The position numbers and the translations under genes were made by a program. DNA of 64,000 nucleotides from an uncultured Candidatus Binatia bacterium (GTDB lineage Bacteria > Desulfobacterota > Binatia > Bin18), in contig OZ241744.1 in the NCBI GenBank assembly GCA_965200965.1, positions 1,024,001 to 1,088,000 on the forward strand, written 5' to 3'. Every line of letters starts with the position of its first letter. Within the stretch, counting starts at the first letter, position 1. Below the pieces are notes generated by a model, which ran no database searches, was not told where the DNA came from, and saw nothing but the letters and a program-made list of their open reading frames with translations. This document shows, piece by piece, positions 2,453-30,824 of the stretch.

Positions 2453-2483
2453 GCAGGTCGGATCAGTGGAGCGTAATCCGACA
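2453..2483 (+). repeat. REP-like palindrome copy 1
   Basis: GCAG-GTCGGAT-CAGTGGAGCGTA-ATCCGAC-A; matches copies at 16833, 21688, 30794. Confidence 0.8.
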
Positions 2484-2606
2484 TTTTTTGTCCCCCTGGC
2501 CAACGGAGCCGGCAGCCCGATTTCTCGCGGGGCGGAGGGTGGTCTGCACTGCGATTATGGGATTCCTGCAAGGGGGAGATGAAGGGAGCGGGCTTTCGCA
2601 CACGGG

Positions 2607-2990
2607 CTAGTCTGCCGCCGGGCGTGGGGGTGCGGTGCGCTCAATCAGCACTTTCAACGCGGTCATGCTCTCCTCATGCTGATGCTGCTGGGCGTCTCGC
2701 TGCTGGTGCAACGCTTCCATCGTGGCTTCATGCTGATGCTGCTGGGCGTCCTGCTGCCGGCGCAACGCTTCCATCGTGGCTTCATGCTGATGCTGCTGGG
2801 CGTCCAACTGCCTGGCACGCTCGGTACTGCTCCCCTTCATGATCTGCACCCCCCACCAGATCAACCCACATTGCCCCGCTCCCACCACCAAGGCCACCAC
2901 TACCCCAGCCACCTCAACCCAGGTCCAGCCCGAATGCGTGGCCAGGGTTTGTAAGGCGGTGACGGCTGCCCGCGCAAGTTCTTCGTTCAT
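2607..2990 (-). CDS. Single-TM protein with 18-aa Gln/His-rich coiled-coil repeats
   Basis: Hydrophobic WVEVAGVVVALVVGAGQCGLIWWGV segment, then DAQQHQHEATMEAL-type repeat x3; RBS AAGGA. Confidence 0.7.
   Translation of the reverse strand: MNEELARAAVTALQTLATHSGWTWVEVAGVVVALVVGAGQCGLIWWGVQIMKGSSTERARQLDAQQHQHEATMEALRRQQDAQQHQHEATMEALHQQRDAQQHQHEESMTALKVLIERTAPPRPAAD
2654..2804. repeat. 54-bp tandem repeat, about 3 copies, coding
   Basis: TCATGCTGATGCTGCTGGGCGTC recurs at 2674, 2728, 2782. Confidence 0.9.
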
Positions 2991-3039
2991 CGGATTTCCT
3001 TTTTCCGGGCTTGCCGCATGGTTTTTTGCAGTATCGGGG

Positions 3040-3507
3040 TCAGGGGCGGCGTCTGGGGCGGGGACGTTTGTAAAGCCGCTCCCGGCCGTGGCGCAGATCC
3101 TCTGAGGTCAGGCCCTCTTGGGGCGCTTCCTGGCCGCCCATGAAGCCGGTGCTGGCCTGGACACAGGTATCAATTTTTTCTTCGTCAGACAGGGCTTGGG
3201 GGCTGAGTTCGAGGTACTCGCGCATGATGAAGTCGCCGCCGCCGGGATGAAAAACCTGTCCGTCGCCCCGTTCACACGCCGCCGCCAGCTGCCGGGGCGA
3301 GAGGCGCAGGGCGAGAGCATCGCCGAGCACAAAGGAAAACGGCTTGTCATCCACATAGTAACAGCGGCCGCCAAACATGGCTTTACTGGTGACGCCCGGC
3401 ACCCCCAAACGGGCCAGCGCCTCGTTGAGGGTGAGCTGATGACGTGGGGGCGGTCTGCGCCGCGGGGCCGGCTGCAAACGGACCGCTTTGGGCTTTCCTG
3501 TCGGCAT
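3040..3507 (-). CDS. TfoX/Sxy N-terminal domain protein
   Basis: KAMFGGRCYYVDDKPFSFVLGDALALR and MREY motifs. Confidence 0.75.
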   Translation of the reverse strand: MPTGKPKAVRLQPAPRRRPPPRHQLTLNEALARLGVPGVTSKAMFGGRCYYVDDKPFSFVLGDALALRLSPRQLAAACERGDGQVFHPGGGDFIMREYLELSPQALSDEEKIDTCVQASTGFMGGQEAPQEGLTSEDLRHGRERLYKRPRPRRRP

Positions 3508-3657
3508 GGTCTGTGTGTATAGCACGGCTCAGGCTTTGCTTGCATCAGGCCGGCCCGCTATGCCACTATACCGGAAGGAGTGAAGGTGTCATCAGCTCGA
3601 CTGGAAAGCGACACGTTCACTCCTGGCTGAATGATGAGCGACCAAAGGAGGAATGCC

Positions 3658-4854
3658 ATGCAGGCCCTGGATCATATTAAAGTTCTTGACCTGACACAGT
3701 TTGAGGCTGGGCCGTCGTGTACCGAGATTCTGGCTTTTCTGGGGGCGGATGTCGTCAAGCTTGAACCGCCCCGGGGTGGGGACCAGGGGCGCTACCTGAT
3801 CACCGACAGGCCGGGACTGGATTCGCCCTATTTTTTGCTGCTGAACGCCAATAAAAAAAGCATCTCGCTCGACCTGAAAAGCGAAAAAGGCAAGGAGCTG
3901 GGGAAAAAACTCCTGCCCCATTTTGATGTGCTGGTCGAGAACTACGCGCCGGGTGCCCTCCAGGCGCTGGGCTTTGGCTACGATGTGGTGTCCGCGATCA
4001 ACCCGCGTATGATCTATGCCCAGGTCAAAGGCTTTGGCACCTACGGCCCCTACTCGGGTTTCAAGAGCTTTGACATGATCGCCCAGGCAACCGGCGGTGC
4101 CATGAGCATCACCGGCACCGCAGCAACACCGCCGCTGCGACCCGGACCGACGATCGGCGATACAGGCACCGGCATTCACTGCGCCGTCGGCATTCTGGCC
4201 GCGCTGCTCCAGCGCGAGAAAACGGGCAAAGGCCAGCGGCTTGAGGTCGCCATGCAGGATGCGGTCGTCAATCTCAGCCGGATCGGCATGATGGGCCATT
4301 ATTACGGCAGCGTGCCGGCTCCCCGCACCGGCAATCGTGTCCCGAGCCTGGCCCCAACCGACCTGTATCCGTGTGCGCCGGGCGGCACGAATGACTATGC
4401 CTTTATCATTACCACCACGCCGGCAATGTGGGAGACGCTGGCCAAAACCATCGGCCGCGAGGACCTGTTGCACGATCCCCGCTTCGCCGACCAGGCCAGC
4501 CGCAACACACATGGGGCCGAACTCAGCGCGATCATCTCGGCCTGGACCACGCAGCGCACCAAGCACGAGGTCATGCAAGCTCTCGGCGAGGCCGGCGTCC
4601 CGTGTGGCGCGGTGCTGGATAGCGGCGATATTCTGGAGAATGAACAACTCAAAGAGCGCGGCATGATCACCACCATCGAGCATCCGACCCGGGGCCGCTT
4701 CACCATGCCCGGCTGTGCGGTTCAACTGTCAGACTCGCCGACCGAGGTGAAACCGGCCCCGCTGTTGGGCGAGCACAACGCCGCTATCCTGGGTACGCTG
4801 TTGGGCCTGACGCCGGCCGACCTGGCCGGACTCAAAGAAGACAAGGTTGTCTGA
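3658..4854 (+). CDS. Family III CoA transferase (CaiB/BaiF, formyl-CoA transferase-like)
   Basis: VLDLTQFEAGPSCT, LGADVVKLEPP, NANKKSISLDLK, FDMIAQATGG; RBS AAGGAGG before ATG 3658. Confidence 0.92.
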   Translation: MQALDHIKVLDLTQFEAGPSCTEILAFLGADVVKLEPPRGGDQGRYLITDRPGLDSPYFLLLNANKKSISLDLKSEKGKELGKKLLPHFDVLVENYAPGALQALGFGYDVVSAINPRMIYAQVKGFGTYGPYSGFKSFDMIAQATGGAMSITGTAATPPLRPGPTIGDTGTGIHCAVGILAALLQREKTGKGQRLEVAMQDAVVNLSRIGMMGHYYGSVPAPRTGNRVPSLAPTDLYPCAPGGTNDYAFIITTTPAMWETLAKTIGREDLLHDPRFADQASRNTHGAELSAIISAWTTQRTKHEVMQALGEAGVPCGAVLDSGDILENEQLKERGMITTIEHPTRGRFTMPGCAVQLSDSPTEVKPAPLLGEHNAAILGTLLGLTPADLAGLKEDKVV

Positions 4855-4871
4855 GCGATGCCGGCGAGCGT

Positions 4872-5339
4872 ATGAATGACGAACGGAACACCCCGGCGTT
4901 CATCCTTCGTCATTCCGCATTCATCCTGCTGCTGGCCGCCTGCGCCACATCGCCCGAGGTGGTCCTGTATTCCCAAGCCGGCGGCCCGGTCCGGGTCAGC
5001 GTCGAAATCGCCGACAGCCCCGAAGAACGCCGCTATGGCCTGATGTACCGCAATGCACTCCCGGACCGGCACGGGATGTTGTTTGTCTTTCCGGGCGAGG
5101 CTGTTCGGTCGTTCTGGATGAAGAACACGCCCCTGTCGCTCGATATCATTTTTATCAGCGCGGCCGGCAGCGTCGTGCATATCGCCCCCCACACCCGCCC
5201 GTTTTCGGAAGCGCCGACCCCCTCCGGCGGACAGGCCGCCCAGTTCGTCCTTGAGGTCAAGGCCGGCTTTTGTGAGCGCTACGGCATCAGCCCCGGCGCT
5301 CGGGTAGAGTTCGTCCGGGTTCCGCCGGCGAGACACTGA
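4872..5339 (+). CDS. DUF192 domain lipoprotein
   Basis: LLLAAC lipobox; [42 protein letters not shown]. Confidence 0.88.
4874..4927. repeat. Heptamer-repeat hairpin inside DUF192 5' end
   Basis: GAATGACGAA (4874-4883) pairs with TTCGTCATTC (4906-4915); tandem TTCATCC/TTCGTCA/TTCCGCA/TTCATCC. Confidence 0.55.
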
Positions 5340-5421
5340 GGGGCGTGTCTGCCGCCCTTCACTTGATATTTTCCGTCGCCCATATTACAAGTCTGGGTTC
5401 CAGTTCAGCAGAGGAAGGAAT

Positions 5422-6972
5422 ATGAGCCTACAGGAAAATCTCCACGAATTGACCCGCCGCAACGAAGAAGCGCTTCAGGGTGGCGGTCCGGCGCGCATCG
5501 AGCGCCAGCACGACCTTGGCAAATTCACGGCTCGGGAACGGATCGAGCTCCTCCTCGACCCGGGCAGTTTTGTTGAGCTTGACCGCTTCAAGACCCACCG
5601 CTGCACCGACTTTGACATGGATAAGCAGAAAACCCCGGGCGACGGGGTGGTGACCGGCTACGGCCATGTTGACGGCCGCCAAGTGTTTGTCTTCTCCCAG
5701 GATTTTACGGTCTTTGGCGGCAGCCTGTCGGGCGCGTTTTCTGAAAAAGTCTGCAAGGTCATGGACTTGGCGGTCAAGACCGGCTGCCCCATCGTCGGCC
5801 TCAACGACTCGGGCGGGGCGCGCATCCAGGAGGGCGTGGCCAGCCTGGCCGGCTATGCCAATATCTTCCACCGCAATGTCCTGTCCTCGGGCGTGGTGCC
5901 CCAGATTTCGGCCATTATGGGGCCGTGCGCCGGCGGCGCGGTCTACTCGCCGGCCATGACCGACTTCATCTTCATGGTCGAAGACACCAGCTATATGTTC
6001 ATCACCGGCCCGGAGGTGATTCGGACCGTGACCCACGAAGAAGTCACCATGCAGGAACTCGGCGGGGCTTTGACCCATAACGCCAGGAGCGGGGTGGCCC
6101 ATTTTGCCTCGTCCAATGAGCGCGAAAGCCTGCACACCATCCGCGAGCTGCTGAGCTTTCTGCCGGCCAACAATATGGAAGACAGCCCAATCCGGCCAAG
6201 CAACGACGACCCCAACCGGCGCGACGAAAAGCTGAACAGCCTCGTCCCCGATAATCCGAACAAGCCCTACGACATCAAGCACCTCATTACGACTGTGGTG
6301 GACGAAAACTACTTCCTGGAGGTGCAAAAAGACTACGCCCGCAATATCGTTGTCGGTTTTGCCCGTCTCGGTGGCCGCACAGTCGGCATGGTGGCCAACC
6401 AACCGGCCTTTCTGGCCGGGGTGCTCGACATTGACGCCTCGGTCAAAGGCGGGCGTTTTGTGCGCTTCTGCGACTGCTTCAACATCCCGATTGTCACCCT
6501 GATTGACGTGCCGGGCTTTCTGCCGGGCACCTCGCAGGAGTACGGCGGCATCATTCGCCACGGGGCCAAGCTGCTGTACGCCTACTGCGAGGCCACTGTC
6601 CCGCTGGTCTCGATCATTACCCGCAAAGCCTACGGCGGGGCCTATGTGGTCATGTCGAGCAAAGAGATTGGCGGCGATATCAACCTGGCCTATCCGACCG
6701 CCGAGATCGCGGTGATGGGCCCCGACGGAGCGGTGAACATTATTCATCGCAACGCGATCAGCAAAGCCGCCGACCCCGACGCCGAGCGCGAAAAGCTCGT
6801 TGACGCATACCGCCGGACCTTTGCCAACCCGTTCAAAGCGGCAGAAATGGGCTACATTGACGAGCTCATCATGCCGGCTGATACCCGGCCGCAGCTGATC
6901 CGGGCCCTCGCCATGCTCCACAACAAGCGGGACAAAAACCCGCCCAAGAAACACGGCAACGTCCCGCTCTGA
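5422..6972 (+). CDS. pccB: Acyl-CoA (propionyl-/methylmalonyl-CoA) carboxyltransferase beta subunit
   Basis: [46 protein letters not shown]. Confidence 0.92.
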
Positions 6973-6982
6973 GGTCTGACCC

Positions 6983-8488
6983 ATGTTTAGACGTATCCTC
7001 ATTGCCAACCGAGGCGAAATCGCCGTCCGGGTGATCCGCGCCTGCCGTGAGCTGGGGGTGGAAACGGTCGCCGTGTACTCAGAGGCCGACCGCACCGCCC
7101 TGCATGTCCAGTACGCCGACTACGCCTACCCAATCGGCCCCTCACCGTCCGCCGAGAGCTATCTGGTCATTGACAGAATTCTGGAAGTGGCCAGAAAGAG
7201 CCGGGCCGAGGCCATCCACCCGGGCTATGGCTTTCTGTCCGAGCGGGCCGCGTTTGCCCGCGCGTGTCGGGAGGCCGGCGTCACATTTATCGGCCCCGGC
7301 CCCGAAGCGATCGAACAGATGGGCGACAAGGTCACGGCCCGGACTCTCATGCAGCAGGCCAGGGTCCCGGTCGTTCCGGGCACCGATGTGCTCGGCGATG
7401 AGGCCGAGGTGGTCGCTGCCGCGCGCGCTCTCGGCTTTCCGGTCATGTTCAAAGCCTCGGCCGGCGGCGGCGGCAAAGGCATGCGCTTGGTCAGTTCTGA
7501 GGACGAGGTCGTGTCTGCCCTGCGCGGCGTGCGCTCTGAGGCCAAGTCATCGTTTGGCGATGACCGGATGTACCTGGAAAAGTTCGTCACCAAGCCGCGC
7601 CATGTTGAGGTTCAGGTCCTGGCCGACACCTTCGGTCACACCCTGCACCTGTACGAGCGGGAGTGTTCACTCCAGCGTCGCCACCAGAAAGTCATTGAGG
7701 AATCGCCCTCAACCGCCATCAGCCCCGAGGTGCGGGAACAGATGGGCCAGGTTGCGGCTGAGGCGGCCCGGGCGGTCAACTATGTTGGGGCCGGCACGGT
7801 CGAGTTTCTGGTTGACGACCAGCAGCACTTTTATTTTCTCGAAATGAACACCCGCATCCAGGTTGAGCATCCGGTCACCGAGTTAGTCACCGGGGTGGAC
7901 CTGGTCAAAGCCCAGATCGAGATCGCCGCCGGCAAGCACCTCACCCTGCACCAGGCCGATATCAAGCAGCGCGGCTGGGCAATTGAGTGTCGCATCTATG
8001 CCGAAGATCCGGCCCGCGACTTCTTCCCCTCACCGGGCAGAATAGAGGTTTTGCGCACCCCGGGCGGCAGCGGCATCCGCGATGACAGCGGCGTGTACGA
8101 GGGCTGGGAAGTCCCGATCTTTTACGACCCCATGATCTCCAAGCTGTGTACCCACGCCAGCACCCGCGGGGAGGCCATTCAGCGCATGTTGCGCGCCCTG
8201 CAAGAGTATACGGTTGAGGGTATTATCACCAACATCCCGTTTCACCGCTGGGCACTCCAGCATCCCCGCTTCATGCGGGGCGATCTGGACACCGGCTTTA
8301 TTGCCCAGGAGTACCACGGGCTGGCCTTTGAAGAAGACGCCCTGCACCAGGAAGTCCTGCTGGCCGCGGCCGCTCTGGCCGCCTATCACAAGGACCAGGC
8401 CGTTCAGCGCACGCTGCCGGCCACCGCCGGCCGCGCGGCCCAGGCGTCGGCTTGGCGTTCGGCCGGCTGGCGCGGAGCCCTCCGATAA
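6983..8488 (+). CDS. Biotin carboxylase subunit
   Basis: ILIANRGEIAVR, IHPGYGFLSE, GGGGKGMR, ERECSLQRRHQK, EMNTRIQVEHPVTE. Confidence 0.95.
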   Translation: MFRRILIANRGEIAVRVIRACRELGVETVAVYSEADRTALHVQYADYAYPIGPSPSAESYLVIDRILEVARKSRAEAIHPGYGFLSERAAFARACREAGVTFIGPGPEAIEQMGDKVTARTLMQQARVPVVPGTDVLGDEAEVVAAARALGFPVMFKASAGGGGKGMRLVSSEDEVVSALRGVRSEAKSSFGDDRMYLEKFVTKPRHVEVQVLADTFGHTLHLYERECSLQRRHQKVIEESPSTAISPEVREQMGQVAAEAARAVNYVGAGTVEFLVDDQQHFYFLEMNTRIQVEHPVTELVTGVDLVKAQIEIAAGKHLTLHQADIKQRGWAIECRIYAEDPARDFFPSPGRIEVLRTPGGSGIRDDSGVYEGWEVPIFYDPMISKLCTHASTRGEAIQRMLRALQEYTVEGIITNIPFHRWALQHPRFMRGDLDTGFIAQEYHGLAFEEDALHQEVLLAAAALAAYHKDQAVQRTLPATAGRAAQASAWRSAGWRGALR

Positions 8489-8500
8489 AACGGACTGCCT

Positions 8501-9004
8501 ATGGCGTATATCGCAACCCTTGGCGACCAGACGCATACCATTGAGGTCCAGGAACTGGAAGCCGACCACCTCTATCGGATTGTCATTGACGGCACCGAAC
8601 GGATCGTTGACGGTCGGCAACTGTCGGCCCACATGTACTCGCTGCTGCTTGAGGATCGGTCGTTCACGATTGACGTGACCGAAAAAGACGACCAGTACAC
8701 GGTCTCGTGCGAGGGCAAGACGTTCCGGCTCACCCTTCTTGACGAGCGGCGCGCCCTGCGTCCCGGCGAGGGCGGCGGCGGCGGAGCCGGCGACACCGCG
8801 CTACGCTCGCTCATGCCGGGAAAAGTCGTTGCGGTGTTGGTGGCGGTCGGCGATCAGGTCGCAAAAGATCAGGGCGTCCTCATCATCGAAGCCATGAAAA
8901 TGGAAAACGAGGTCCAGGCGTCCACCGCAGGCACGGTCAAAAGCATCCTCGTCACCCCCGGCCAGACCGTTGAGGCGGGCGAGTTATTGCTTGAACTGGA
9001 GTGA
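8501..9004 (+). CDS. Biotin carboxyl carrier protein with N-terminal BT-like domain
   Basis: IIEAMKMENEV biotinylation motif, MPGKVV. Confidence 0.92.
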   Translation: MAYIATLGDQTHTIEVQELEADHLYRIVIDGTERIVDGRQLSAHMYSLLLEDRSFTIDVTEKDDQYTVSCEGKTFRLTLLDERRALRPGEGGGGGAGDTALRSLMPGKVVAVLVAVGDQVAKDQGVLIIEAMKMENEVQASTAGTVKSILVTPGQTVEAGELLLELE

Positions 9005-11317: not shown

Positions 11318-11516
11318 CTGCTCCCTCCTTATGCGTTGTGTGTTCGGTGTGCTCATGCCGCGCACCGGGCTGTCATTGACAGACGTGATGCCGGCTGGCG
11401 ATGCAGGCTGTCTTCAGACGGTGAGGCCGGCGTCATCAAGCGGAGCGATGACCGGCTCTTCTCCCATAAAAAAGGCCAGCGTGCGCTGGCCTTCCACACC
11501 CAGGCAAGCTTGGGGC

Positions 11517-12704: not shown

Positions 12705-12825
12705 GCTCTTCCTCCTTTGGCTGCCCTTGGCTCACCCAGGTTTTTTTGAGGGCTGATACTATACGAAATCTGCCGGCAGGCATAGACTGGCCGGGCAGAG
12801 AAGTCAACCGCCCGGAGGACAGGGT

Positions 12826-15224: not shown

Positions 15225-16268
15225 ATGGACCTTGGCCTGCTGTTTCCCTTTCGCAACCCCCCTCAGTGGCGCAAACCCTTCCCCGAGTTCTACGCCGAAC
15301 ATCTCAAACAAACCCGGCTCGCCGAGGAACTCGGCTATGACACCATCTGGCTGACCGAGCACCATTTTGCCGAGGACGGCTATTCGCCGTCGCTGCTGCC
15401 CATTGCCGGCGCTATTGCGGCCATGACCAGCCGGGTGCGGATCGGCACCTTTCTGTTGCTGCTGCCCTTGCACAACGCGGTGCGGGTGGGTGAAGACGCG
15501 GCGACCGTTGATGTCATCTCCAACGGCCGGTTTGATATGGGATTTGGACAGGGCTATGCTCCCTCAGAGTTTACGGGCTACGGCATTCCCCGCCGGGAGC
15601 GCGCTGCACGGCTGGAGGAAGGCATTGAGGTCATCCGGGGCATGTGGACCCGAGACCCGTTCTCCTACCAGGGCCGCCATTACGACCTGAAGAACATCAG
15701 CCTGGTACCCAAACCGGCCCAGACGCCGCACCCGCCGATCTGGATTGGGGCCGGCCAGAAAAAAGCTGTTGAGCGGGCTGCCCGCATGGGCTGCCACTTC
15801 CTGGGGACCTCGGACCCGACCGCCCAGGACACCTACGACAGCGCGCTGCGCGACCACGGCCATGACCCCCAAAATTTTCACGCCGCCCAACTCCGCTGGG
15901 TTCATGTTGGCCCGACCCACGATCAAGCCTGGGACAATGTGCAGGATCACTTGCACTACATGCTGAGTTGGTACGGTCGTTGGCTGGCCGAGGCCAGAGA
16001 CTTTGCCGGGGCCGAAAAGTTCGCCCAACTCCCGCCGGCCGCGGAACTGCGTAACGTCACCGATCAACTCATCGGCGCGCCGGTCGTTGGCACGCCGGAA
16101 GAGGTCGGCCGCGAACTCAAACGTATGACCGCCGCCATCAGGACGACCCATATTGTCATGGGCATGCACCTGCCCGGCCTTGACCCGGCCAAGAGCCGGC
16201 AGTCAATGGAGTTGTTCGCCAGGGAGGTGATGCCGGGTCTGCATCAGGCGTCCAGACGGCTCAGTTGA
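15225..16268 (+). CDS. LLM-class flavin-dependent oxidoreductase
   Basis: GYDTIWLTEHHF, RVRIGT, ISNGRFDMGFGQGY, PPIWIG. Confidence 0.92.
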   Translation: MDLGLLFPFRNPPQWRKPFPEFYAEHLKQTRLAEELGYDTIWLTEHHFAEDGYSPSLLPIAGAIAAMTSRVRIGTFLLLLPLHNAVRVGEDAATVDVISNGRFDMGFGQGYAPSEFTGYGIPRRERAARLEEGIEVIRGMWTRDPFSYQGRHYDLKNISLVPKPAQTPHPPIWIGAGQKKAVERAARMGCHFLGTSDPTAQDTYDSALRDHGHDPQNFHAAQLRWVHVGPTHDQAWDNVQDHLHYMLSWYGRWLAEARDFAGAEKFAQLPPAAELRNVTDQLIGAPVVGTPEEVGRELKRMTAAIRTTHIVMGMHLPGLDPAKSRQSMELFAREVMPGLHQASRRLS

Positions 16269-16776
16269 GGAGCTTCATCAGCGTGACCGTCAGGCCGACA
16301 ACGCCAGCCCCCAGGACCCATAACTGACGGTACAAGCGCACTTCCAGGCCGGCCAGGTCGGCCTTCAATTCGGCCTTGGTTTCGGTCAGTTCGGTCCGCA
16401 GTTCGGTGACATCAGCCTTGACCGCCGTCAGCTCGGTCCGCAGTTCGGTGACATCAGCCTTGACCGCCGTCAGCTCGGTCCGCAACCCGGTGACATCAGC
16501 CTTGACCGCCGTCAGCTCGGTCCGCAGTTCGGTGACATCAGCCTTGACCGCCGTCAGCTCGGTCCGCAACCCGGTGACATCAGCCTTGACCGCCGTCAGC
16601 TCGGTCCGCAGTTCGGCCAAGTCGGCTTTCAACCCGGTGATGTCGACCTTGGTCGCGAGGTTCTCGCCCATCGCCGCGCCGACGGTCGCCACAACGGCCT
16701 CGGCCAGCGGTTCGGTCGCCCCGGCTTCCTGGAGTGCCTTGACCGCCTCGTGTGTGTCGAAAGCAAACATGGTCAT
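16261..16776 (-). CDS. DUF1640/CCDC90-like protein with expanded coiled-coil stalk
   Basis: FDTHEAVKAL..AG head, LATKVDI neck, five LRTELTAVKADV units, C-terminal TM WVLGAGVVGLTVTLM. Confidence 0.8.
   Translation of the reverse strand: MTMFAFDTHEAVKALQEAGATEPLAEAVVATVGAAMGENLATKVDITGLKADLAELRTELTAVKADVTGLRTELTAVKADVTELRTELTAVKADVTGLRTELTAVKADVTELRTELTAVKADVTELRTELTETKAELKADLAGLEVRLYRQLWVLGAGVVGLTVTLMKLLN
16386..16640. repeat. 42-bp tandem repeat (5 full copies plus degenerate ends), coding
   Basis: CAGCTCGGTCCGCA(GTT/ACC)CGGTGACATCAGCCTTGACCGCCGT repeated; two alternating variants (TEL/TGL). Confidence 0.92.
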
Positions 16777-16786
16777 GCCGGCCAGC

Positions 16787-17149
16787 CTACTGCCGGCCCG
16801 CCCGGCCCGTCAAGAACAGGGGATGAGCGGGGTGTCGGATTACGCTCCGCTCATCCGACAAGACTCCCTCCATTGCCGGCGAGGGAACGCGGCGGGAGGC
16901 GGTCCATGTTGATGACAGACACTGGACAAGTCCGAATAGCCTGGCGGTAACAGCCAGGATGAGCGCGGACTGCAAGCCAGCCGCCCATTTGAGGGCAGTC
17001 AGGTCGGCCCGAAGCAGAGCAATGTCCGCCTTGGTGGCAACCTGTTCATCAGTGTGGCTGATGGCCGATACGATGGCTTCAGCCTGCGCGGCGTTGAACC
17101 CGCCGGCTTCCAAGGCTTGAACGGTAGCGTGTGTATTGAGGGTGTACAC
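16787..17149 (-). CDS. Short DUF1640/CCDC90-like protein, natural end probably near 16922
   Basis: LNTHATVQALEAGGF..AQAEAIV, VATKADI, LKWAAG...ARLFGLV; the following CAG may be a lost TAG, so the ORF reads through the REP. Confidence 0.65.
   Translation of the reverse strand: MYTLNTHATVQALEAGGFNAAQAEAIVSAISHTDEQVATKADIALLRADLTALKWAAGLQSALILAVTARLFGLVQCLSSTWTASRRVPSPAMEGVLSDERSVIRHPAHPLFLTGRAGRQ
16833..16860 (-). repeat. REP-like palindrome copy 2
   Basis: Minus strand TGTCGGATGAGCGGAGCGTAATCCGACA, near-identical to copy 1. Confidence 0.8.
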
Positions 17150-21050: not shown

Positions 21051-21266
21051 GTGGGGAGCTATCCTGAGCGATATAAAGGGAAGTTCAGCAGCTACGAAGT
21101 AACGAAATTGCTGGATCGAATCCAGCCGCCCGCCATCAAGGAAGCAGTGCGACGCTCCACCAGGGAAATCGTCATTGCCATGGCAGAGCCAGGGGGAACT
21201 CTGGTCACGCTGACCCTGGAAAGTCAGGACGGGAAGAAATTTACTGGCCGGTACAGTCCGGCATGA
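21051..21266 (+). pseudogene. Hypothetical gene 5' part, apparently interrupted at CCGG 21258-21261
   Basis: RBS GGAGGT, AT-richer; joining 21261 to 21721 extends the frame (…GRYSPDWDTKGSM…). Confidence 0.45.
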
Positions 21267-21290
21267 GCTCGTTGATAGGGATGAATTGAA

Positions 21291-21641
21291 ATGACCAGGA
21301 GACATACCCTGACACAAAAGTTCAGAACCGCTCTTGCCCTGGCGGTGCTTCTGTGGTGCGGTCCGTCTGCCACTCACGCCAGTGAGTGCCGGCAGTTATG
21401 CGATTCCGACTTCTGGAAATCCGCCACCCTGGCAGCCGTCAGGGCAGTGCTGGCCGGCGGGGCGGATGTACACGCCCGAACTGAGGACGGCGAGACCCCC
21501 ATGCATGCGGCGGCGAGGTCCAACGCGACCCTGGCGGTTGTAGCGGCTTTGCTCGAAGCCGGGGCAGACCTGACAGCCAAGAACGAAGCTGGTAAGACTT
21601 CTTTTGACTTGATCCGGGAGAATACAAGCCGAAATGAATGA
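21291..21641 (+). CDS. Secreted mini-ankyrin protein: signal peptide, N-cap, one repeat, truncated C-cap
   Basis: TALALAVLLWCGPSATHA signal; DFWKSAT..AV.AVLA.GAD N-cap; GETPMHAAARSNATLAVVAALLEAGAD; homologous to both ends of the 30862-34950 gene. Confidence 0.8.
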   Translation: MTRRHTLTQKFRTALALAVLLWCGPSATHASECRQLCDSDFWKSATLAAVRAVLAGGADVHARTEDGETPMHAAARSNATLAVVAALLEAGADLTAKNEAGKTSFDLIRENTSRNE

Positions 21642-21717
21642 CCACGCTCCCGCTACCCTGCTACAAACTCCCCACCTCCAGGGGAATTGTCGGATTACGC
21701 TTCGCAATCCGACCTGC
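21633..21717. repeat. Ankyrin-gene 3' trailer ending in REP-like palindrome copy 3
   Basis: ...CCCCACCTCCAGGGGAATTGTCGGATTACGCTTCGCAATCCGACCTGC; inverted match to 30794-30870. Confidence 0.88.
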
Positions 21718-21918
21718 CGGACTGGGATACAAAGGGAAGCATGATAGCGACGAAGATATGGAACTCTTCGGAGTGTGGAGAGAACCCAGCGGCGAAGAAT
21801 GGCCATGGCAAGCAGAACTAATTCCTGATGAAGACAGTTGACAGGGGCGATAGAGCCAGAAATAGCCAAGTTCAAAGCCCGTTCGTTTCTGCACGCTTAC
21901 TCCAGACAGGTTTCAATC

Positions 21919-22515: not shown

Positions 22516-22540
22516 ACCGACCTCCAAGAAAAAAGGATGA

Positions 22541-22578
22541 TAAAAAACAAGCCGAAGAAGATCGTTCTTCGGCTTGTT
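22541..22578 (-). terminator. Intrinsic terminator immediately upstream of the NYN gene
   Basis: Perfect 14-bp stem AACAAGCCGAAGAA/TTCTTCGGCTTGTT with 5-nt loop, ending in a U tract on the minus strand. Confidence 0.85.
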
Positions 22579-22693
22579 GAGTTGGAAAACTGACCTGACA
22601 TGCCGTTCCAGGTACAGCCCCCATTACCTTCTTACCCTCGTTTGGGGTTGGTTAATGGTCTCGCTGCCAGAGGGGACGCCAGGGGGTATTCTT
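22541..22693 (-). ncRNA. Candidate ~150-nt structured leader or antitoxin RNA
   Basis: Lies between promoter and terminator; by-eye stems CAGC/GCUG, CCAUU/AAUGG, ACCC/GGGU and ACCUG/CAGGU; no ORF on this strand in the track. Confidence 0.5.
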
Positions 22694-22699
22694 GAAGTG

Positions 22700-22728
22700 A
22701 GCCTGACACGGCCTGAGCTGTCTGTCAA
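22700..22728 (-). promoter_or_regulatory. Sigma70-type promoter
   Basis: TTGACA (22728-22723), 17 nt, TG-extended CAGGCT (22705-22700). Confidence 0.55.
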
Positions 22729-22761
22729 CAGAGTCCATGTCCTGCGTCGTGGGCGCGTTCA

Positions 22762-23946: not shown

Positions 23947-24240
23947 AGATTCCTCCCTGCGCAATGCTGATCCCAGTTAGTGCCATCTTCCCGGCTGGCA
24001 CGCAAGCGGCCCACACCACACAGGAGCGCACTTCGTCGGGGCACATCCCAGTGTCCAAGGACACGAGGCGAGCGCCGCGGTCGGCTTTGCCGGCGGGTGA
24101 AGCTGTGCTACAGTCCCGCGCCCGGGGGAATATCGCTTCAGGTCCACGAGTGGAAGTGCGCGCCGTATGGTCCTGGCCGGCGTTCACCGGGCATGGTGTA
24201 TTGACCTCGCCCCGTTTGGGGCCGCAAGGAGGAAGCTGCA

Positions 24241-25449
24241 ATGGAAGTTCTTGGAAGCTGCGAGCCAAAGTTTCAATCCGTCCGTCAGGAGTTTGAGCGC
24301 AATTTTGACCAGCGCGGCGAGGTTGGTGCCTCGGTGTGCGTCACCGTCCACGGCCACACGGTGGTCGATCTGTGGGGCGGCACGGCCAACGCCGAAACCG
24401 GCGCAGCCTGGAATGAAGACACGGTCAGCATTGTCTTTTCCTCGACAAAAGGGGCGACAGCGATCTGCGCCCATATCCTGGCCTCACGGGGTCAGCTCGA
24501 CCTTGAGGCCCCGGTAGCCACATACTGGCCGGAGTTTGCCCAGGCCGGCAAAGACACTATCCCGGTCAAGATGCTGCTGAATCACCAAGCCGGCCTGCCG
24601 GCGGTACGCGACCCCCTGCCCCAGGGGGCCTATGCCGACTGGGAGCTGATGGTCAACACCCTGGCCAAACAAGAACCGTTCTGGGAGCCCGGCACCCGCA
24701 ACGGCTATCACGCCCTGAGCTTCGGCTGGCTGGTCGGCGAGGTCGTTCGGCGGGTGTCGGGTACATCGCTGGGCAGTTTCTTTCGGGATGAGATCGCCGA
24801 CCCGCTCGGTCTGGACTTCTGGATCGGTCTGCCCGAGGACAAAGAATCGCGGGTTGCGCCCATGATTGCGGCCGAGCCGGACCCGGACAGCCTGTTCTTC
24901 CGGGAGATCGCCAAGCCCGGCTCACTCCAATCCCTGGTGCTGCTCAACTCGGGCGGCTACATGGGGGCCGAGCCGGAGTATGACACACGCGCGGCCCACG
25001 CTGCCGAGATTGGCGGGGCCGGCGGCATCACCAATGCGCGCGGCCTGGCCGGCATGTACGAACCCCTGGCCCTGGGCGGCAAAAAGGGCGGAGTCGAGCT
25101 GGTCAACGCCGAGACGCTGGCCCGGATGGGCCGGGTGTCCTCAGCGACCGGCCGGGATGCGGTGCTGGTGATGCCGACCCGGTTTGCCCTGGGTTTTATG
25201 AAAACCATGGACAACCGTGGCGAGCCGGTCGGGGTACAGGACAGCGTCTTGACCTCTGAAGAAGCCTTCGGTCATGTCGGGGCCGGGGGATCGTTTGGTT
25301 TTGCCGATCCCAAATCCGGCATGTCGTTCGGCTACACCATGAACCGGATGGGGCCCGGCGCGTCGCTCAACGAGCGCGGCCAGAGCCTCGTGGACGCGGT
25401 ATACCGGGCACTCGGTTACAGCTCCAGCGGCTCAGGTGCCTGGGACTAA
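24241..25449 (+). CDS. Serine hydrolase, beta-lactamase-fold esterase
   Basis: FSSTK (SxxK), LLNHQAGL, GYHALSFG, FGHVGAGGS. Confidence 0.9.
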   Translation: MEVLGSCEPKFQSVRQEFERNFDQRGEVGASVCVTVHGHTVVDLWGGTANAETGAAWNEDTVSIVFSSTKGATAICAHILASRGQLDLEAPVATYWPEFAQAGKDTIPVKMLLNHQAGLPAVRDPLPQGAYADWELMVNTLAKQEPFWEPGTRNGYHALSFGWLVGEVVRRVSGTSLGSFFRDEIADPLGLDFWIGLPEDKESRVAPMIAAEPDPDSLFFREIAKPGSLQSLVLLNSGGYMGAEPEYDTRAAHAAEIGGAGGITNARGLAGMYEPLALGGKKGGVELVNAETLARMGRVSSATGRDAVLVMPTRFALGFMKTMDNRGEPVGVQDSVLTSEEAFGHVGAGGSFGFADPKSGMSFGYTMNRMGPGASLNERGQSLVDAVYRALGYSSSGSGAWD

Positions 25450-25498
25450 GGCCGTCCGATGGCCGACGGCAAGCAGGGGGGGTGTCGGGTGTCCGGGT

Positions 25499-26014
25499 TC
25501 AACGAGTCCTGAGCTGGTCAACGCTAACCCCCTCGTGCCCCAACAAGTACCGCTTGCGCTCCAATCCTCCGGCGTAGCCGGTCAGGCTGCCGTTGACACC
25601 CAGCAGGCGGTGGCAGGGCACAACAATGGCAATCGGATTCAGCGCATTGCTCATGCCGACCGCCCGGCAGGCAGCAGGCCGGCCGAGTTGTGCCGCCAGC
25701 TGTCCATAGGACAGCACCCTGCCTGGGGGAATGGCACGCAGCGCGGTCCATACCTGTTGCTGAAAGTCGGTTCCGCCCAGGCTGACCGGGATTGTCCCAA
25801 TCGCTCGCATATCGCCGTCAAAATAGGCCCGGAGCCGGCTGCTGAAGCCGTTTGGGTCGGCTGCCTCGGACAGACAATACTTCCCATAGCGGCGTTTCAG
25901 CAGCAGCGTCATCCGCTCCTCGGCGTAGTCAAGTGCGCACAAACGCCGGCCTTCGGCCACAATCAGCAGTGTGCCAAGGACCGAATCAAGCCGGTCAAGA
26001 GCCAGTTCAAGCAT
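25499..26014 (-). CDS. ogt: Methylated-DNA--protein-cysteine methyltransferase
   Basis: GTDFQQQVW, SYGQLA, RAVG, NPIAIVVPCHR, GYAGGLERK. Confidence 0.92.
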   Translation of the reverse strand: MLELALDRLDSVLGTLLIVAEGRRLCALDYAEERMTLLLKRRYGKYCLSEAADPNGFSSRLRAYFDGDMRAIGTIPVSLGGTDFQQQVWTALRAIPPGRVLSYGQLAAQLGRPAACRAVGMSNALNPIAIVVPCHRLLGVNGSLTGYAGGLERKRYLLGHEGVSVDQLRTR

Positions 26015-26079
26015 CGGGCCTTCCCGACCAACGCGCCGGCACCCCGGAACATTGGGGCCAGGACTTTTGCGTAACCGGG

Positions 26080-26376
26080 CTACAGCTCGGCAATCGCGTT
26101 CTTGACCGTCTCCCACTCAGCAATGGGCGTAAAACGCCGTCTGAGCACATGGCCGTGGGTGATACCCCGCAGGAACGGACCGACAGTTGTCGTATGATCC
26201 TGGATATCGAGCACCATGATCAGCTTGGGTTCTTCATTCGACGCCCACGGTCCGGCGATTCTGGTCACGCCGGGCGGGAAATTCCCGGCCAGCAGGCCGT
26301 CTATGGCCTGCACAATCTCCTTGGCCCGGTTTACACTGTCCACATTCAAATACAACTCTGCCAGATGTAAGGCCAT
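26080..26376 (-). CDS. Small hypothetical protein (DUF3303/GYD-like)
   Basis: RBS GAGGA; PPGVTRIAGPW motif; typical codon usage. Confidence 0.6.
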   Translation of the reverse strand: MALHLAELYLNVDSVNRAKEIVQAIDGLLAGNFPPGVTRIAGPWASNEEPKLIMVLDIQDHTTTVGPFLRGITHGHVLRRRFTPIAEWETVKNAIAEL

Positions 26377-26509
26377 GCATTCGTCCTCCTCTGCCCGCCA
26401 CCCTACGCCCAGGCCGGGCAGGATTCAAGCTCTGCCCTTGCCACCGGTCGCCCGACTGGGCTAGAGTGCGTCCAACTCGAACGCCACACTGCACGCAAAG
26501 AGAGGGGTT

Positions 26510-27607
26510 ATGCCAAGGAATACTGTACTTGTCGCCGGAGCCTCCGGCCTGGTCGGCTCTGCCGCGGTCCGGCATTTTGCCGGCCTGCCCGACTGGGAGG
26601 TGATAGCCGTCTCTCGCCGCGCGCCTCAGACTGAGGAGGGGCTGAGTTTTGTGTCTGTTGACCTGAGCGACACCGCCCGCTGCGCCGAGGTCTTCGGCCA
26701 GATGAGCCAGGTGACACACCTGGTGTATGCCGCGGTGAACGAGAAACCGGGGCTGATTGAGGGCTGGCGTGACCGGCACCAGATGCAGACCAACCGGGCC
26801 ATGCTGGTCAACCTGTTTGAGCCGCTTGAAGCCGTGGCCACAGACCTCCGGCACGTCTCCATTCTGCAAGGCACCAAAGCCTACGGCGCGCACATCGAAC
26901 CCTTTCCGGTCCCGGCCCGGGAGCGCTGGCCGCGCCACCCGCACGCCAACTTCTACTGGCTGCACGAAGACTACATCAAGGCCAAACAGCAGGGCAAAGC
27001 CTGGCACTGGTCCATCTGGCGCCCGCAGCTCATTTTTGGCGAAGCCATCGGCAGCAATCTGAACGTGATTACCCCCATCGGGGTGTATGCGGCCCTGCTC
27101 AAAGAGGAGGGCAAACCCCTGTCCTACCCCGGGGGCGCGCCTTATGTGTTTGAGGCGATTGACGTTGATGTCCTGGCCCACGCGCTGGAGTGGGCGGCCA
27201 GGGCCGACGCCAGCCATAACGAAATTTTCAACATCACCAACGGCGATGTGTATGTGTGGCAGAACGTGTGGCCGGTGCTGGCCGAGGCGTTTGGCATGGA
27301 GGTTGGCCCGCCCCAGCCGTGTTCGATGGTCGAAGAACTGCCCAGACGCCAGGACGAGTGGGCGGCGATTGTGAAAAAATACAATCTCACCGCCCCACCA
27401 GATGTGCGGGAGTTTGTTGGTGAGTCCGCAGCCCTGGCTGACTTCTGCCTGGCCTGCGGCAGACAGCAAGCGCCGCCGCCCATGCTGGTCAGCACAATCA
27501 AGCTGCGCCAAGCCGGCTTCCACGAGTGCATGGACACCGAGGATATGTTCCGCAAGTGGATTCGGCGCTTTCAGGAACTGCGCTGGCTGCCGCCGCTCGG
27601 GGTGTGA
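26510..27607 (+). CDS. PRISE-family SDR (progesterone 5-beta-reductase/iridoid synthase-like)
   Basis: GASGLVG, AVSRR, QGTKAYG, NFYW..ED, WSIWRP, FNITNGD. Confidence 0.88.
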   Translation: MPRNTVLVAGASGLVGSAAVRHFAGLPDWEVIAVSRRAPQTEEGLSFVSVDLSDTARCAEVFGQMSQVTHLVYAAVNEKPGLIEGWRDRHQMQTNRAMLVNLFEPLEAVATDLRHVSILQGTKAYGAHIEPFPVPARERWPRHPHANFYWLHEDYIKAKQQGKAWHWSIWRPQLIFGEAIGSNLNVITPIGVYAALLKEEGKPLSYPGGAPYVFEAIDVDVLAHALEWAARADASHNEIFNITNGDVYVWQNVWPVLAEAFGMEVGPPQPCSMVEELPRRQDEWAAIVKKYNLTAPPDVREFVGESAALADFCLACGRQQAPPPMLVSTIKLRQAGFHECMDTEDMFRKWIRRFQELRWLPPLGV

Positions 27608-27646
27608 GGCGGGCAGCCGCCCCTTCTCCCCCGCTTTTTGCCGCGC

Positions 27647-28966
27647 TCAGGCGGCGATCCGCTGCCGGGCCGGCGTCGCCACCCACTCGGCAGTGCGCCG
27701 GGTCGCCTCAAGCACATCACCGCACCAGCGGCCGAAAAAATCGTCGGGTAAGGGCCGGTCGAGCGGAATCGTCTCGCTGGCCGACAGGGCTTTGGCCCCG
27801 TCAAAGTCCACATAGGCCAGCCGGGCCGTCAGTTCCTGGGCCGGTCGCTGAAACGAGACCCCGGGCAGGGCCGCCACCCCGGTGTCCCGGAGCAGGCGCT
27901 CGCACAAGGTGCTGCTGTCCCGGATATCGCGCCGGGCCAGGCACTTGGCCAGGGGCGAAAAATCTGGAAACAGGTAAAACGCCCCGACCGGCTGGTGTAT
28001 CCGCACCCCGGCCCGGGCCAGGATGGCGGCGCAGCGCTGGCCGAGCCCGGCCAGAATCCGTCGCACATGCCACAGGTAGCGCTCAATGGCCAGACCGTCC
28101 TTGAAGGCCCGCACCGCGGCAAACTGAATCGGCGCGCTGACCGAGGTGTAGGTCTCACTGGCAACCGCCACCATCGCCTCCATGAGCCAGGACAGTTCGG
28201 GCGGAAAGGTGAAGGTCCCCAGCCGCCAGCCGCCGGCTCCGCACCACTTTGACAGGCCCGAGCTGACAATCGTCCCCTCGGGATAAAAGCGGGCCACCGA
28301 GACGTGCCGGCCCTGGTGGTGCAGCTGCCCGTAGATTTCGTCGGACAGCAGGATGACGCCAAAGCGACGGGCCACCGCGGCGAGTTCTTGCAGCTCGTCC
28401 GCGCTATAGCTGCCCCCCTCGGGGTTGCCCGGATAATTCAGCACCAGCAGCCGCGGCAGCGCGGCGTCGTGCTGACAGAGCGCGGACAGCTGCCGCGGCG
28501 TCACCCGCCAGTTGTCGGCAAACCGGGTCGGCACCAGCCGGACCTGGCGGCCGATGATCCGGGCCTGTGGCACATACGACACCCAGGCCGGCGACGGTAC
28601 GAGCAACTCGCCGTCAAAGCTCAGCTGCAACAGAAACATCAGCTCCTTAGAGCCAGGCCCGATCAGCACATACTCGGCCTGGGCGTCAAGCCGGTCTTTC
28701 TGGCGGTGAAACTCGGCCACTGCCTCACGCAGCGCCGGCAAACCCCGGACCGGCAGATAGTCTTTTTCGCTGGCGTGCAGCATCAGGGCGTCCACCACCT
28801 CGGTCGGCACCGGAAACGGCGACTGGCCGAGGCCCATGTTATAGATATGCCGCCCGGCGGCACGCAGCGCCGTGCTGCGCTCGTTGATAGCCAGTGTGGC
28901 AGACTGTTGCAGCCCGCAGATATTCAGGTTGAGACCGAGCCCTCGCCTGGCATGGTTATCCTCCAT
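27647..28966 (-). CDS. Class I/II PLP aminotransferase
   Basis: GLGQSPF, NYPGNPEG, LSDEIY, SGLSKW...GWRLG. Confidence 0.9.
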   Translation of the reverse strand: MEDNHARRGLGLNLNICGLQQSATLAINERSTALRAAGRHIYNMGLGQSPFPVPTEVVDALMLHASEKDYLPVRGLPALREAVAEFHRQKDRLDAQAEYVLIGPGSKELMFLLQLSFDGELLVPSPAWVSYVPQARIIGRQVRLVPTRFADNWRVTPRQLSALCQHDAALPRLLVLNYPGNPEGGSYSADELQELAAVARRFGVILLSDEIYGQLHHQGRHVSVARFYPEGTIVSSGLSKWCGAGGWRLGTFTFPPELSWLMEAMVAVASETYTSVSAPIQFAAVRAFKDGLAIERYLWHVRRILAGLGQRCAAILARAGVRIHQPVGAFYLFPDFSPLAKCLARRDIRDSSTLCERLLRDTGVAALPGVSFQRPAQELTARLAYVDFDGAKALSASETIPLDRPLPDDFFGRWCGDVLEATRRTAEWVATPARQRIAA

Positions 28967-29180
28967 GTCCTCCTCCTCTCCACATCCCATCCCGCGCCGG
29001 TCTCCCCGGCCGTCCTGTGTTGGCTCAGGACGGTGCGACCGGACGCTTCCCATCACGGCGATTGTCCAGGCAGCAGCCTAGCAGATCGGCGACGCAAAGG
29101 GAAGAAATCGGGCCGCCAAAAGCGCCCGCGGGTGCAAAAAATATCCCGCTCTGCTATATGCCGCACAGGAGGATTGTCGT

Positions 29181-30479
29181 ATGGCTTGGGATTTTGAGAC
29201 AGAGCCGGAGTTTCAGACCGAACTTGACTGGATAGACCGCTTTGTGGCTGAGGAAGTCGAGCCCCTCGACCATGTGCTGGGCAACCCGTATGACATCCAC
29301 AACCCGCGCCACCAGAAAATCGTGCCCAGCCTCCAGGCCGAGGTCAAACGCCGCGGCCTGTGGGCCTGCCATCTGGGGCCGGAGCTGGGCGGCAAGGGCT
29401 ATGGGCAGCTCAAGCTGGGCCTGATGAACGAAATCCTGGGCCGTTCACGCTTTGCACCGATTGTCTTTGGCTGTCAGGCCCCGGACACCGGCAACAGCGA
29501 AATCCTGGCCCACTACGGCAGCCCGGAGCACAAGGAGCGATACCTGAAACCGCTGCTCAACGGCGAGATGGTGTCGTGCTTTTCCATGACCGAGCCGCAC
29601 GCCGGGGCCGACCCCAAGATGTTCCGGTGCAGGGCCGAGCGGGACGGCGATTTCTGGGTCATCAACGGCGAGAAGTGGTTTTCGTCCAACGCCCGCTGGG
29701 CCACGTTTCTGATCGTCATGGTTGTAACCGACCCGGACGCCCCGCCCTACCAGCGGATGTCCATGTTCATCGTGCCGGCCGACACCCCCGGCATTCACAT
29801 CAAGCGCAATGTCGGCCTGGCCGATGAGGTCGAGGGCGAAGGCGACCACGCCTACATCCACTACGACCATGTGCGCGTGCCGGCCGAAAATATGCTGGGC
29901 GGCCCCGGCCAGGGCTTTGAGGTCGCTCAGACCCGCTTGGGCGGTGGCCGCATCCACCACGCCATGCGGACCATCGGCCAGATCAGGAAATCGTTTGACA
30001 TGATGTGCGAGCGGGTCCTGTCGCGGGAGACCCAGGGCGAAATCCTGGCCACCAAGCAGATGGTGCAGGAGAAGATCGCCGACTCATGGATGGAGATTGA
30101 GCAGTTCCGGCTGTTTGTACTGCGGACCGCCTGGCGGATTGACAAGTACAAAGACTACCGCAAGGTGCGCAAAGACATTGCCGCCATCAAGGCCGTCATG
30201 CCCAAGGTCTTCCACGATGTGGCCTACCGCGCTCTGCACCTGCACGGCTCGCTCGGCGTATCCAACGAAATGCCCTTCTCCAGGCAGATCACCGAGTCGT
30301 TTGTCATGGGCCTGGCCGACGGCCCGACCGAGGTTCACAAGATCACCGTCGCCCGCCAGATTCTGCGCGAGTACGAGGGCACTAAGGGCCTGTTTCCAAC
30401 CGGCCACCTGCCGGCCCTGCGCGAGCGGGCGATTCGGAAGTACGGGGAGGTGTTGGAGATGGAAGTCGGAAATCTGTAG
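29181..30479 (+). CDS. Acyl-CoA dehydrogenase (ACAD10/11-like)
   Basis: QAPDTGNSEIL, CFSMTEP, INGEKWFSS, QTRLGGGRIHH, LADGPTEVH. Confidence 0.92.
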   Translation: MAWDFETEPEFQTELDWIDRFVAEEVEPLDHVLGNPYDIHNPRHQKIVPSLQAEVKRRGLWACHLGPELGGKGYGQLKLGLMNEILGRSRFAPIVFGCQAPDTGNSEILAHYGSPEHKERYLKPLLNGEMVSCFSMTEPHAGADPKMFRCRAERDGDFWVINGEKWFSSNARWATFLIVMVVTDPDAPPYQRMSMFIVPADTPGIHIKRNVGLADEVEGEGDHAYIHYDHVRVPAENMLGGPGQGFEVAQTRLGGGRIHHAMRTIGQIRKSFDMMCERVLSRETQGEILATKQMVQEKIADSWMEIEQFRLFVLRTAWRIDKYKDYRKVRKDIAAIKAVMPKVFHDVAYRALHLHGSLGVSNEMPFSRQITESFVMGLADGPTEVHKITVARQILREYEGTKGLFPTGHLPALRERAIRKYGEVLEMEVGNL

Positions 30480-30486
30480 GCCAGTG

Positions 30487-30585
30487 ATGAAATATGTCAT
30501 GGTGGTTGAGAAGACGGACAGCGGCTACTCGGCGTACTCACCGGACATTGACGGCTGTGTGGCGACAGGGGCAAGCAAGGAGGCA
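30487..30585 (+). pseudogene. hicB: HicB antitoxin N-terminal stub
   Basis: MKYVMVVEKTDSGYSAYSPDIDGCVATGASKEA, then similarity stops. Confidence 0.75.
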
Positions 30586-30599
30586 TTGGGGGTGAGGCT

Positions 30600-30824
30600 A
30601 TGGCAATTACTCCGCTCAAGACCAAACGGGACTACCGGCGGGCGTTGCAGGAGATAGAGGGGCTGATGACGGCAGAGCACAATACGCCGGACGGCGACCG
30701 CCTTGAGGTCCTGACGAGTCTCGTTGAGGCTTGGGAAGCGAGGCACTATCCGCTCGACTTGCCCGGCCCGGTGGCCACACTGCGTTATCACATGCAGGTC
30801 GGATTGCGAAGCGTAATCCGATAA
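30600..30824 (+). pseudogene. higA: HigA-type antitoxin truncated before its HTH by the REP element
   Basis: MAITPLKTKRDYRRALQEIEGLM.A...TPDGDRLEVL..LVEAWEARHYPLDLP.PV..LRYHM, then runs into the REP at 30794. Confidence 0.8.

Follow-up and report, generated by a model that had tools for sequence, protein, structure and literature searches.

In this work, we analysed a 64,000-nucleotide stretch (the window) of the genome of an uncultured Candidatus Binatia bacterium (assembly GCA_965200965.1, contig OZ241744.1, positions 1,024,001 to 1,088,000 of the forward strand), and found that four short hairpins within it are decayed members of a family of repetitive extragenic palindromic (REP) elements of the GTAG type known from Escherichia coli, orphaned in this genome, an identification of which we are nearly certain. 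The cognate enzyme, a REP-associated tyrosine transposase (RAYT), is encoded in sister genomes and missing here; while present, it would have cut and rejoined single strands at C|T steps beside REPs, and we regard it as the likely source of two rearrangements preserved in the window, namely a junction between one REP and a truncated higA-like antitoxin gene, and an insert of 476 bp carrying a small ankyrin gene, which likely left its old place as a circle. Most other REP copies are orphan remnants.

The analysed genome (G000; relatives are designated by similar handles) comprises 3.62 Mb in one contig and is 99.3% complete. A REP profile built from 27 seed copies produced 63 raw matches across it and none in the reversed genome, and after merging of overlaps at a score of 20 there remained 53 unique copies at 48 sites, 44 of them gene junctions. 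The tag reads GTAG in 21 copies, GCAG in 18, GGAG in 5 and otherwise in 9 (GYAG in 39/53); the family is thus genome-wide, modest in size and mainly GTAG-tagged. Its consensus consists of GTAG followed by a hairpin of 26-29 nt with a bulged stem, in which one position occurs as A-T, C-G and G-C and is paired in 44/53 copies, while the loop is GNA in 25/53 copies and in 63/73 copies of relatives G005 and G006. REP-bearing junctions are enriched for convergent genes (16/44 vs 225/1752). At the score cut-off, doublets account for 5 of the 48 sites, the other copies being mostly singlets. No Rfam family matched in the window. Taken together, a tagged palindrome of 20-50 nt, repeated and mostly intergenic, with stem covariation and with RAYT genes flanked by it in relatives, answers to the definition of a GTAG-type REP; decay of orphan REPs is known from lineages devoid of RAYT (bioRxiv 2021.07.10.451892).

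An exact REP pattern was counted in 30 relatives as well as in G000. It gave 110 copies in G006, 67 in G005, 57 each in G001 and G014, 15 in G000 and 14 in G003; G002, G007 and G019 have 4 each, and the 22 other relatives none. In G001 and G006, a RAYT gene of 171 aa lies between identical GTAG hairpins in inverted orientation, the same hairpin as that of the window, which bears out an earlier proposal that these are REPs of the RAYT-processed kind. The two proteins score 190 and 187 bits with NF047646 (cut-off 80), resemble E. coli TnpA-REP (YafM, PDB 4ER8) with E=3e-44, and contain the motifs HLH (HUH) and YIHYNP (Y---NP); we place them provisionally in group 2, subclass 2.2, the subclass being assigned by likeness to the E. 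coli enzyme and not with the profiles of the authors of that scheme. The REP-RAYT-REP arrangement (REPtron) occurs in G001, G006 and about 20 further genomes. A RAYT gene flanked by these REPs, suggested as a check in the preliminary description, therefore exists in relatives, but none was found in G000 with PF01797, NF047646 or a protein query. The closest RAYT genes belong to Candidatus Binatia, and others with 57-77% identity occur in Nitrospirales, Entotheonella and Terriglobia; the RAYT tree, from which 4 broken rows were excluded, is poorly resolved between phyla, and for this reason we claim neither donor nor direction of transfer.

All four window hairpins are located where the preliminary description had placed them and do not represent chance matches; three of the four carry a GCAG tag. 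Copy 1 (2453..2483, + strand) has a GCAG tag and a decayed upper stem, and lies 14 bp from a convergent PIN-domain toxin gene (1936..2439, +), its nearest neighbour, and 124 bp from a QHQHEA-repeat gene (2607..2990, -). Copy 2 (16833..16863, -), between two DUF1640 (CCDC90-like) genes (the pair spanning 16261..17149, -), has lost its tag, which is replaced by TCTT. Copy 3 (21688..21717, -; GCAG) lies near the end of the 476-bp insert. Copy 4 (30794..30823, +) is its paralog (85 bp, 84% identity), with a GCAG tag fused to codon 65 of the higA-like gene.

This last fusion is the first of the two rearrangements. The 5' part of the antitoxin gene (65 codons; 30600..30794, +) displays 74% identity to an HTH protein of 127 aa from G045; the name higA is that of the preliminary description, and Pfam gave only HTH_3 (E=0.001). 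As had been observed before, its truncation coincides with the GCAG end of the REP: the higA reading frame continues as far as this GCAG (30794). In the intact homologue, the sequence at the break is ATG GAG CAG. The GCAG may therefore consist of higA's own letters, and the junction falls on higA's own C|TGC. It corresponds to the C|T inside the inverted tag, which is the published cut site of iREP-II (PMC3333891). A higA gene cut at the same point in a strain lacking the REP had been named as an observation that would refute the cassette reading of the preliminary description, and G007 offers this in part, as it retains higA to within two codons of the break, without REP and spacer; the site is nevertheless read best as the product of a later deletion, the simplest history being a REP-higA junction in the common ancestor from which G007 subsequently lost the REP, so that the G007 site does not constitute an empty site. 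Before higA, positions 30480-30600 of the window hold only a hicB-like remnant, and G007 has hicA and hicB there.

The second rearrangement is the insert (21252..21731), 476 bp between TACA direct repeats at 21252-21255 and 21728-21731, which contains the small ankyrin gene (116 aa; 21291..21641, +) as a passenger. It splits a gene with a 119-aa homologue in G001 and no Pfam or NCBIfam match into a 5' half (21051..21255, +) and a 3' half (21728..21841, +). An interrupted reading frame had been suspected at 21717; this frame exists, with its second half beginning only at 21728, as positions 21718-21727 belong to the insert. After removal of the insert both halves are in frame, and the restored 104-aa frame aligned to residues 2-112 of the homologue (2-63 for the first half alone), with no extension of the alignment in the other two frames. 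The locus of origin is the giant ankyrin gene (30862..34983, -) next to copy 4: copies 3 and 4 have 85 bp and the ankyrin 3' end in common, and the shared segment ends at the tag. The slot beside copy 4 holds an ankyrin gene in G003, G004 and G007 also. Furthermore, the ten bases just beyond the REP directly adjoin those of the opposite insert end within the 3' end of a ribbon-helix-helix (RHH) antitoxin gene (34961..35203, -, in G000; also in G006 and G007). In G000 and G007 this gene stands before the ankyrin gene, and in G006 it is found in the same slot. Hence the segment formed by the RHH antitoxin 3' end, the ankyrin gene and the REP recurs in the insert as a circularly permuted copy; an inverted-repeat reading of its ends was dropped, as both ends are contiguous in the antitoxin gene. 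The circle junction is inferred at C|T 21722/21723, where a GAC|T at a distance of five bases from the inverted tag, on its outer side, would be joined to a GAC|T in the antitoxin gene (C|T 35000/34999). Such a circle is equivalent to a tandem-duplication junction, and would then have been opened within TACA. The whole stretch is covered at 99% identity by a single contig from an independent sponge-metagenome run, and the right junction is bridged by a run of a second study, hence the insert is no assembly artefact.

In vitro, TnpA-REP has been shown to join strands and to cut at C|T, including the C|T of CTAC and sites at distances above 400 nt, and capture of flanking genes by REP/TnpA-REP was proposed in 2012 (PMC3333891). 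The footprint predicted by that capture model is an insert of this kind, which carries a gene in circularly permuted order and has its junction on the outer C|T. In the present case, RAYT would have bound, on the sense strand of the ankyrin gene, a REP that was the partner in a doublet and is now deleted, and would have cut at two GAC|T steps, the one outside the inverted tag and the one in the upstream antitoxin gene; the 3'-OH would then have been joined to the 5'-phosphotyrosine end, closing a circle that may have integrated 9 kb away through a 4-bp microhomology. Judged from these sequence footprints, the chances that RAYT catalysed this circle appear to us evenly balanced. An AG that precedes the tag by 5-6 bases, and reads C|T on the opposite strand, is present in 19/43 copies of G000 and in 34/77 copies near RAYT genes, over a background of 5.6% per position; REP copies share descent, therefore this conserved outer AG defines the end of the element and is no independent test. 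Three tandem duplications of 18-19 bp at REP ends (L192, L079 and L201), out of 15 short duplications listed, join the outer C|T to a C|T inside the inverted REP.

At another locus (L002, G000 452150-456390), a 4-kb defence segment encoding an SDH-type protease and AAA_15 plus DUF3226, absent in G007, is flanked on either side by a copy of the final (3') 200 bp of a NYN gene, and a REP end is joined there to a C|T of the NYN gene. It looks like a Campbell-type circle integration, but a 5-bp microhomology explains the layout equally well.

Several results speak against an enzymatic origin of these junctions. With the restored frame the bit score increases little, from 52.0 to 54.7, and E=0.11 was obtained for the second half by itself. 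An empty target site was not recovered: no join skipping the insert appeared in the 4 metagenome runs covered, out of 10, none was present in the metagenome contigs, and the protein collection yielded 2 proteins, one of them the window's own. The integration point on the target is T|T and not C|T, and on the strand that would have been cut no actively oriented REP is left. Between the joined sites, 4-5 bases are identical, which would suffice for microhomology joining of the ordinary kind. A strict screen for the permuted-junction signature detected 1/53 copies in G000 (tag side) vs 8/250 random intergenic sites, mostly via repeats, that is, no enrichment; on the other side it detected 2/53, and in G005/G006 3/73, all apparently spurious, and a loose version (16/53 vs 102/300 in the null set) had no power. 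Between G005 and G006 (94% identity over 1.32 Mb), REPs are not commoner at large gaps (19/93) than at small ones (14/80), and the large REP-adjacent gaps include insertions of insertion sequences (IS) and losses of metabolic genes rather than defence cargo. Finally, no RAYT was detected in G005 or in G014, with their 67 and 57 exact REP copies.

In an alternative explanation, which has the shared 4-5 bases and the outcome of the strict screen in its favour, RAYT only spread the REPs, which would now be passive relics in variable and weakly selected slots, with the junctions, including the ankyrin circle, made by host microhomology or homologous recombination at the hairpins, through fork stalling or shared sequence. 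Recombination between any two REP copies places a flank switch at the tag by itself, G007 lost the REP at 30794 by an apparent deletion, and REP singlets have been published as decayed remnants (PMC3116915). Many slots in the window region vary without REPs: the copy 2 slot, between two luciferase genes, has border REPs in G005, G006 and G007 and none in G004, with 0.6 to 14 kb of differing DNA, and the slots adjoining it are equally variable without REPs. Homology with G007 breaks off 3 bp outside copy 1's tag. Against a passive origin stand the circle junction on the conserved outer C|T, the position used by the three tandem duplications in other genomes, and the higA junction on the published iREP-II site (PMC3333891). 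We hold the passive origin to be the less probable one, and favour cut-and-join by RAYT at C|T steps for the two window junctions.

A second alternative, that of the preliminary description, was that a GCAG-specific REP variant forms the dedicated end of mobile cassettes carrying repeat-protein genes. The three GCAG copies of the window do lie downstream of the QHQHEA-repeat gene and of the two ankyrin genes with the tag pointing away from them, and copy 3 ends a segment in which an ankyrin gene was in all likelihood mobilised; however, copies 3 and 4 derive from one duplication, and at copy 1 the PIN gene is nearer. GCAG is far commoner than other tag changes in G000 and G007: the second tag base is C in 44% of 43 copies in G000 and 68% of 22 in G007, vs 8% of 73 in G005/G006. 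The REPs located within 150 bp of a RAYT gene (28 loci), on the other hand, read GTAG in 47/53 cases and GCAG in 1/53, and GYAG degeneracy of GTAG families has been published (PMC3733652). GCAG accompanies every stem variant, distinguishes paralogous copies as a point change, and is the tag of 4 of the 14 copies located in doublets. A distinct REP family with a GCAG guide was thus rejected, as a single RAYT-adjacent REP has GCAG and the stems are those of GTAG copies; rejected as well was a general rule by which GCAG always derives from the target, since paralogs that share a flank carry now one tag, now the other. A genome-wide depletion of GTAG, a possible cause of the T-to-C change, was not seen (ratio 1.27).

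Gene neighbours were assessed on our own gene calls for G000 (3,616 genes) with Pfam, in the genome-wide scan with a test of neighbour classes that the preliminary description had called for. Genes lie within 300 bp of a REP in 2.6% of cases as background. The claim that the hairpins occur only beside repeat-protein genes fails outside the window: ankyrin genes are near a REP in 2/6 cases, namely the two window genes, of which one is copied from the other, with 0/4 elsewhere; the QHQHEA family in 1/18, the window gene being the sole member, with 0/17 elsewhere; and TPR genes in 3/27. DUF1640 genes reach 5/13, three of them in one tandem array, and N6/N4 methylases 5/29. Tandem gene-plus-REP units do exist for DUF1640 in G000 and for the QHQHEA family in G007, a point in favour of cassettes. 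Repeat-protein genes are nevertheless not a general cargo, nor are REPs general cassette ends, and the GCAG cassette version is largely refuted by the genome-wide counts; we consider it very improbable. Likewise, the absence of these hairpins from the surroundings of metabolic genes is true for the window, but of the 46 intergenic sites genome-wide, 3 are bordered on both sides by ordinary metabolic genes and about 12 on one side, and in relatives REP copies directly follow the acyl-CoA dehydrogenase and luciferase-like genes of the window region.

The scan revealed a different bias, toward defence and toxin-antitoxin (TA) genes. Neighbour classes were assigned by hand and non-blind for 46 intergenic REP sites (2 weak intragenic matches excluded) and for 103 control junctions in 20 evenly spaced stretches. 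A restriction-modification, TA, nuclease, TIR, FRG or nucleotidyltransferase gene directly adjoins 24/46 REP sites vs 19/103 control junctions (Fisher p=6e-5; p=0.07 when sites are merged into 26 clusters vs the 20 stretches). Independently of annotation, neighbours at REP junctions are lower in GC than those at random junctions (p=0.002). Defence/TA slots are thus over-represented beside REPs, at p=0.07 after clustering, probably because such slots tolerate and undergo rearrangements. RAYT genes elsewhere have TA or restriction neighbours at about 8/16 loci.

A broader reading would extend the mechanism to this RAYT clade (Binatia, Nitrospirales, Entotheonella, Terriglobia), with REP/RAYT acting as an integrase-free gene-shuffling system in which REP-adjacent genes, excised by the enzyme as single-strand circles joined at C|T, enter the genome again at other places and build islands of defence, TA and repeat-protein genes, and the RAYT gene itself moves likewise; we find this doubtful. 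If general, such a process would explain the duplication of ankyrin-type genes and the restocking of defence islands without an integrase, and were the shuffling reading true, the 476-bp insert would be its base-resolved natural fossil and a direct test of the long-sought host function of RAYT. The RAYT host role and REP movement in vivo are described as open questions (PMC8266576, PMC5581495), and the insert names an exact substrate, and G001 and G006 an intact enzyme, for a bench test.

Compared with known systems, these REPs resemble those of REP/BIME (bacterial interspersed mosaic element) and TnpA-REP (PMC3333891, PMC8266576, PMC6006769) in a bulged hairpin with GTAG at its foot, doublets arranged head to head, an HUH-Y1 gene between inverted REPs, a mostly intergenic location with convergent-gene enrichment, and C|T junctions. 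They differ in that G000 lacks the enzyme and has few copies, mostly singlets, with frequent GCAG and a GNA triloop, as well as in the defence/TA neighbour bias and in the one whole gene that apparently moved as a circle. With the REPINs of Pseudomonas fluorescens (PMC3116915; Bertels and Rainey bioRxiv 2021.07.10.451892) they share the doublet as apparent mobile unit in G005/G006, the stronger decay of singlets and the association of decay with RAYT loss; copies are mostly inverted doublets in G005/G006 but not in G000, where doublets make up only the five sites mentioned above. The predicted circle chemistry, two cuts on one strand with phosphotyrosine joining, is that of the 'peel and paste' elements IS200/IS605 (IS608); unlike these, the insert has no second dedicated end or cognate IS, and it displays a 4-bp direct repeat, which IS200/IS605 elements are described as not making (PMC3333891). 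An IS200/IS605 element or a non-autonomous derivative was rejected on the grounds of the single REP and the direct repeat. As with the attC sites of integron cassettes, to which REPs have been compared (PMC8266576), hairpins separate successive accessory and defence genes in several G000 islands; unlike them, their orientation is mixed, most defence genes have no hairpin (as seen above for the methylases), and no series of gains or losses cassette by cassette emerged. Beyond the 2012 proposal, our literature search, which did not extend to Supplementary Figure S7 of PMC3333891 (captured gene fragments), returned no report of a natural gene-carrying REP circle or of a REP/RAYT-bounded defence cassette, and a later mobilome study reportedly saw no REP circles (bioRxiv 2024.07.17.603846). 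As a repeat family, these REPs are ordinary, and include one case with a well-resolved, gene-carrying footprint.

Regarding the RAYT genes themselves, near-identical REPs accompany the RAYTs with 57-77% identity across four phyla (loci outside Binatia being L197-L209, L214 and L244). The REP-RAYT-REP unit occupies 4 different loci in 5 close Binatia genomes (L192-L196, L203), and that of L208 is inverted in its slot relative to L198/L200/L204. This variety of loci is at odds with the vertical, fixed-locus behaviour described for REPtrons, which are said not to move as a unit. In G001 (L058:1990-2080), four tandem 18-bp repeats directly follow the inverted REP of the RAYT gene, each unit spanning from one C|T to the next, and are possibly a footprint of RAYT amplification.

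The doublet, the apparent mobile unit in G005/G006, is also found there inside a shell of about 120 bp that resembles a MITE (a miniature inverted-repeat transposable element), with short inverted ends and a GTAG REP doublet within (L088-L147; e.g., G006:C8:3313714 and 1983689). This shell inserts at CTAG with target duplication and without cargo, holds 33 of the 73 REPs of G005/G006, which further separates these copies from REPINs, contains CGTC-type hairpins instead in other places, and is absent from G000. REPs seem to hitch-hike on a separate element, probably of the DDE type.

In three islands of G000 (L012, 1.744-1.751 Mb; L017, 2.629-2.635 Mb; L019, 2.994-3.005 Mb), a REP lies between nearly every accessory gene or operon, in mixed orientation, and some G000/G007 breakpoints fall at REPs; the gene contents are ParA/AlbA_2, FRG-TPR and Eco57I; DUF1828, a D12 methylase and DUF6338; and HTH, the DUF1640 array and PemK, respectively. 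The QHQHEA family comprises 18 small membrane-anchored coiled-coil repeat proteins in G000, without a convincing Pfam match, encoded mostly in tandem arrays (2.753-2.761, 2.176-2.178 and 1.771-1.772 Mb, 241 kb, and the window gene). In G007 (C1, 203-206 kb; L181-L183), three tandem units of about 1 kb each contain a QHQHEA-family gene, a TPR fragment and a REP. G000 also possesses three CRISPR repeat types (about 224, 128 and 86 copies), and its 3.6 Mb include the 29 N6/N4 methylase-like genes counted above.

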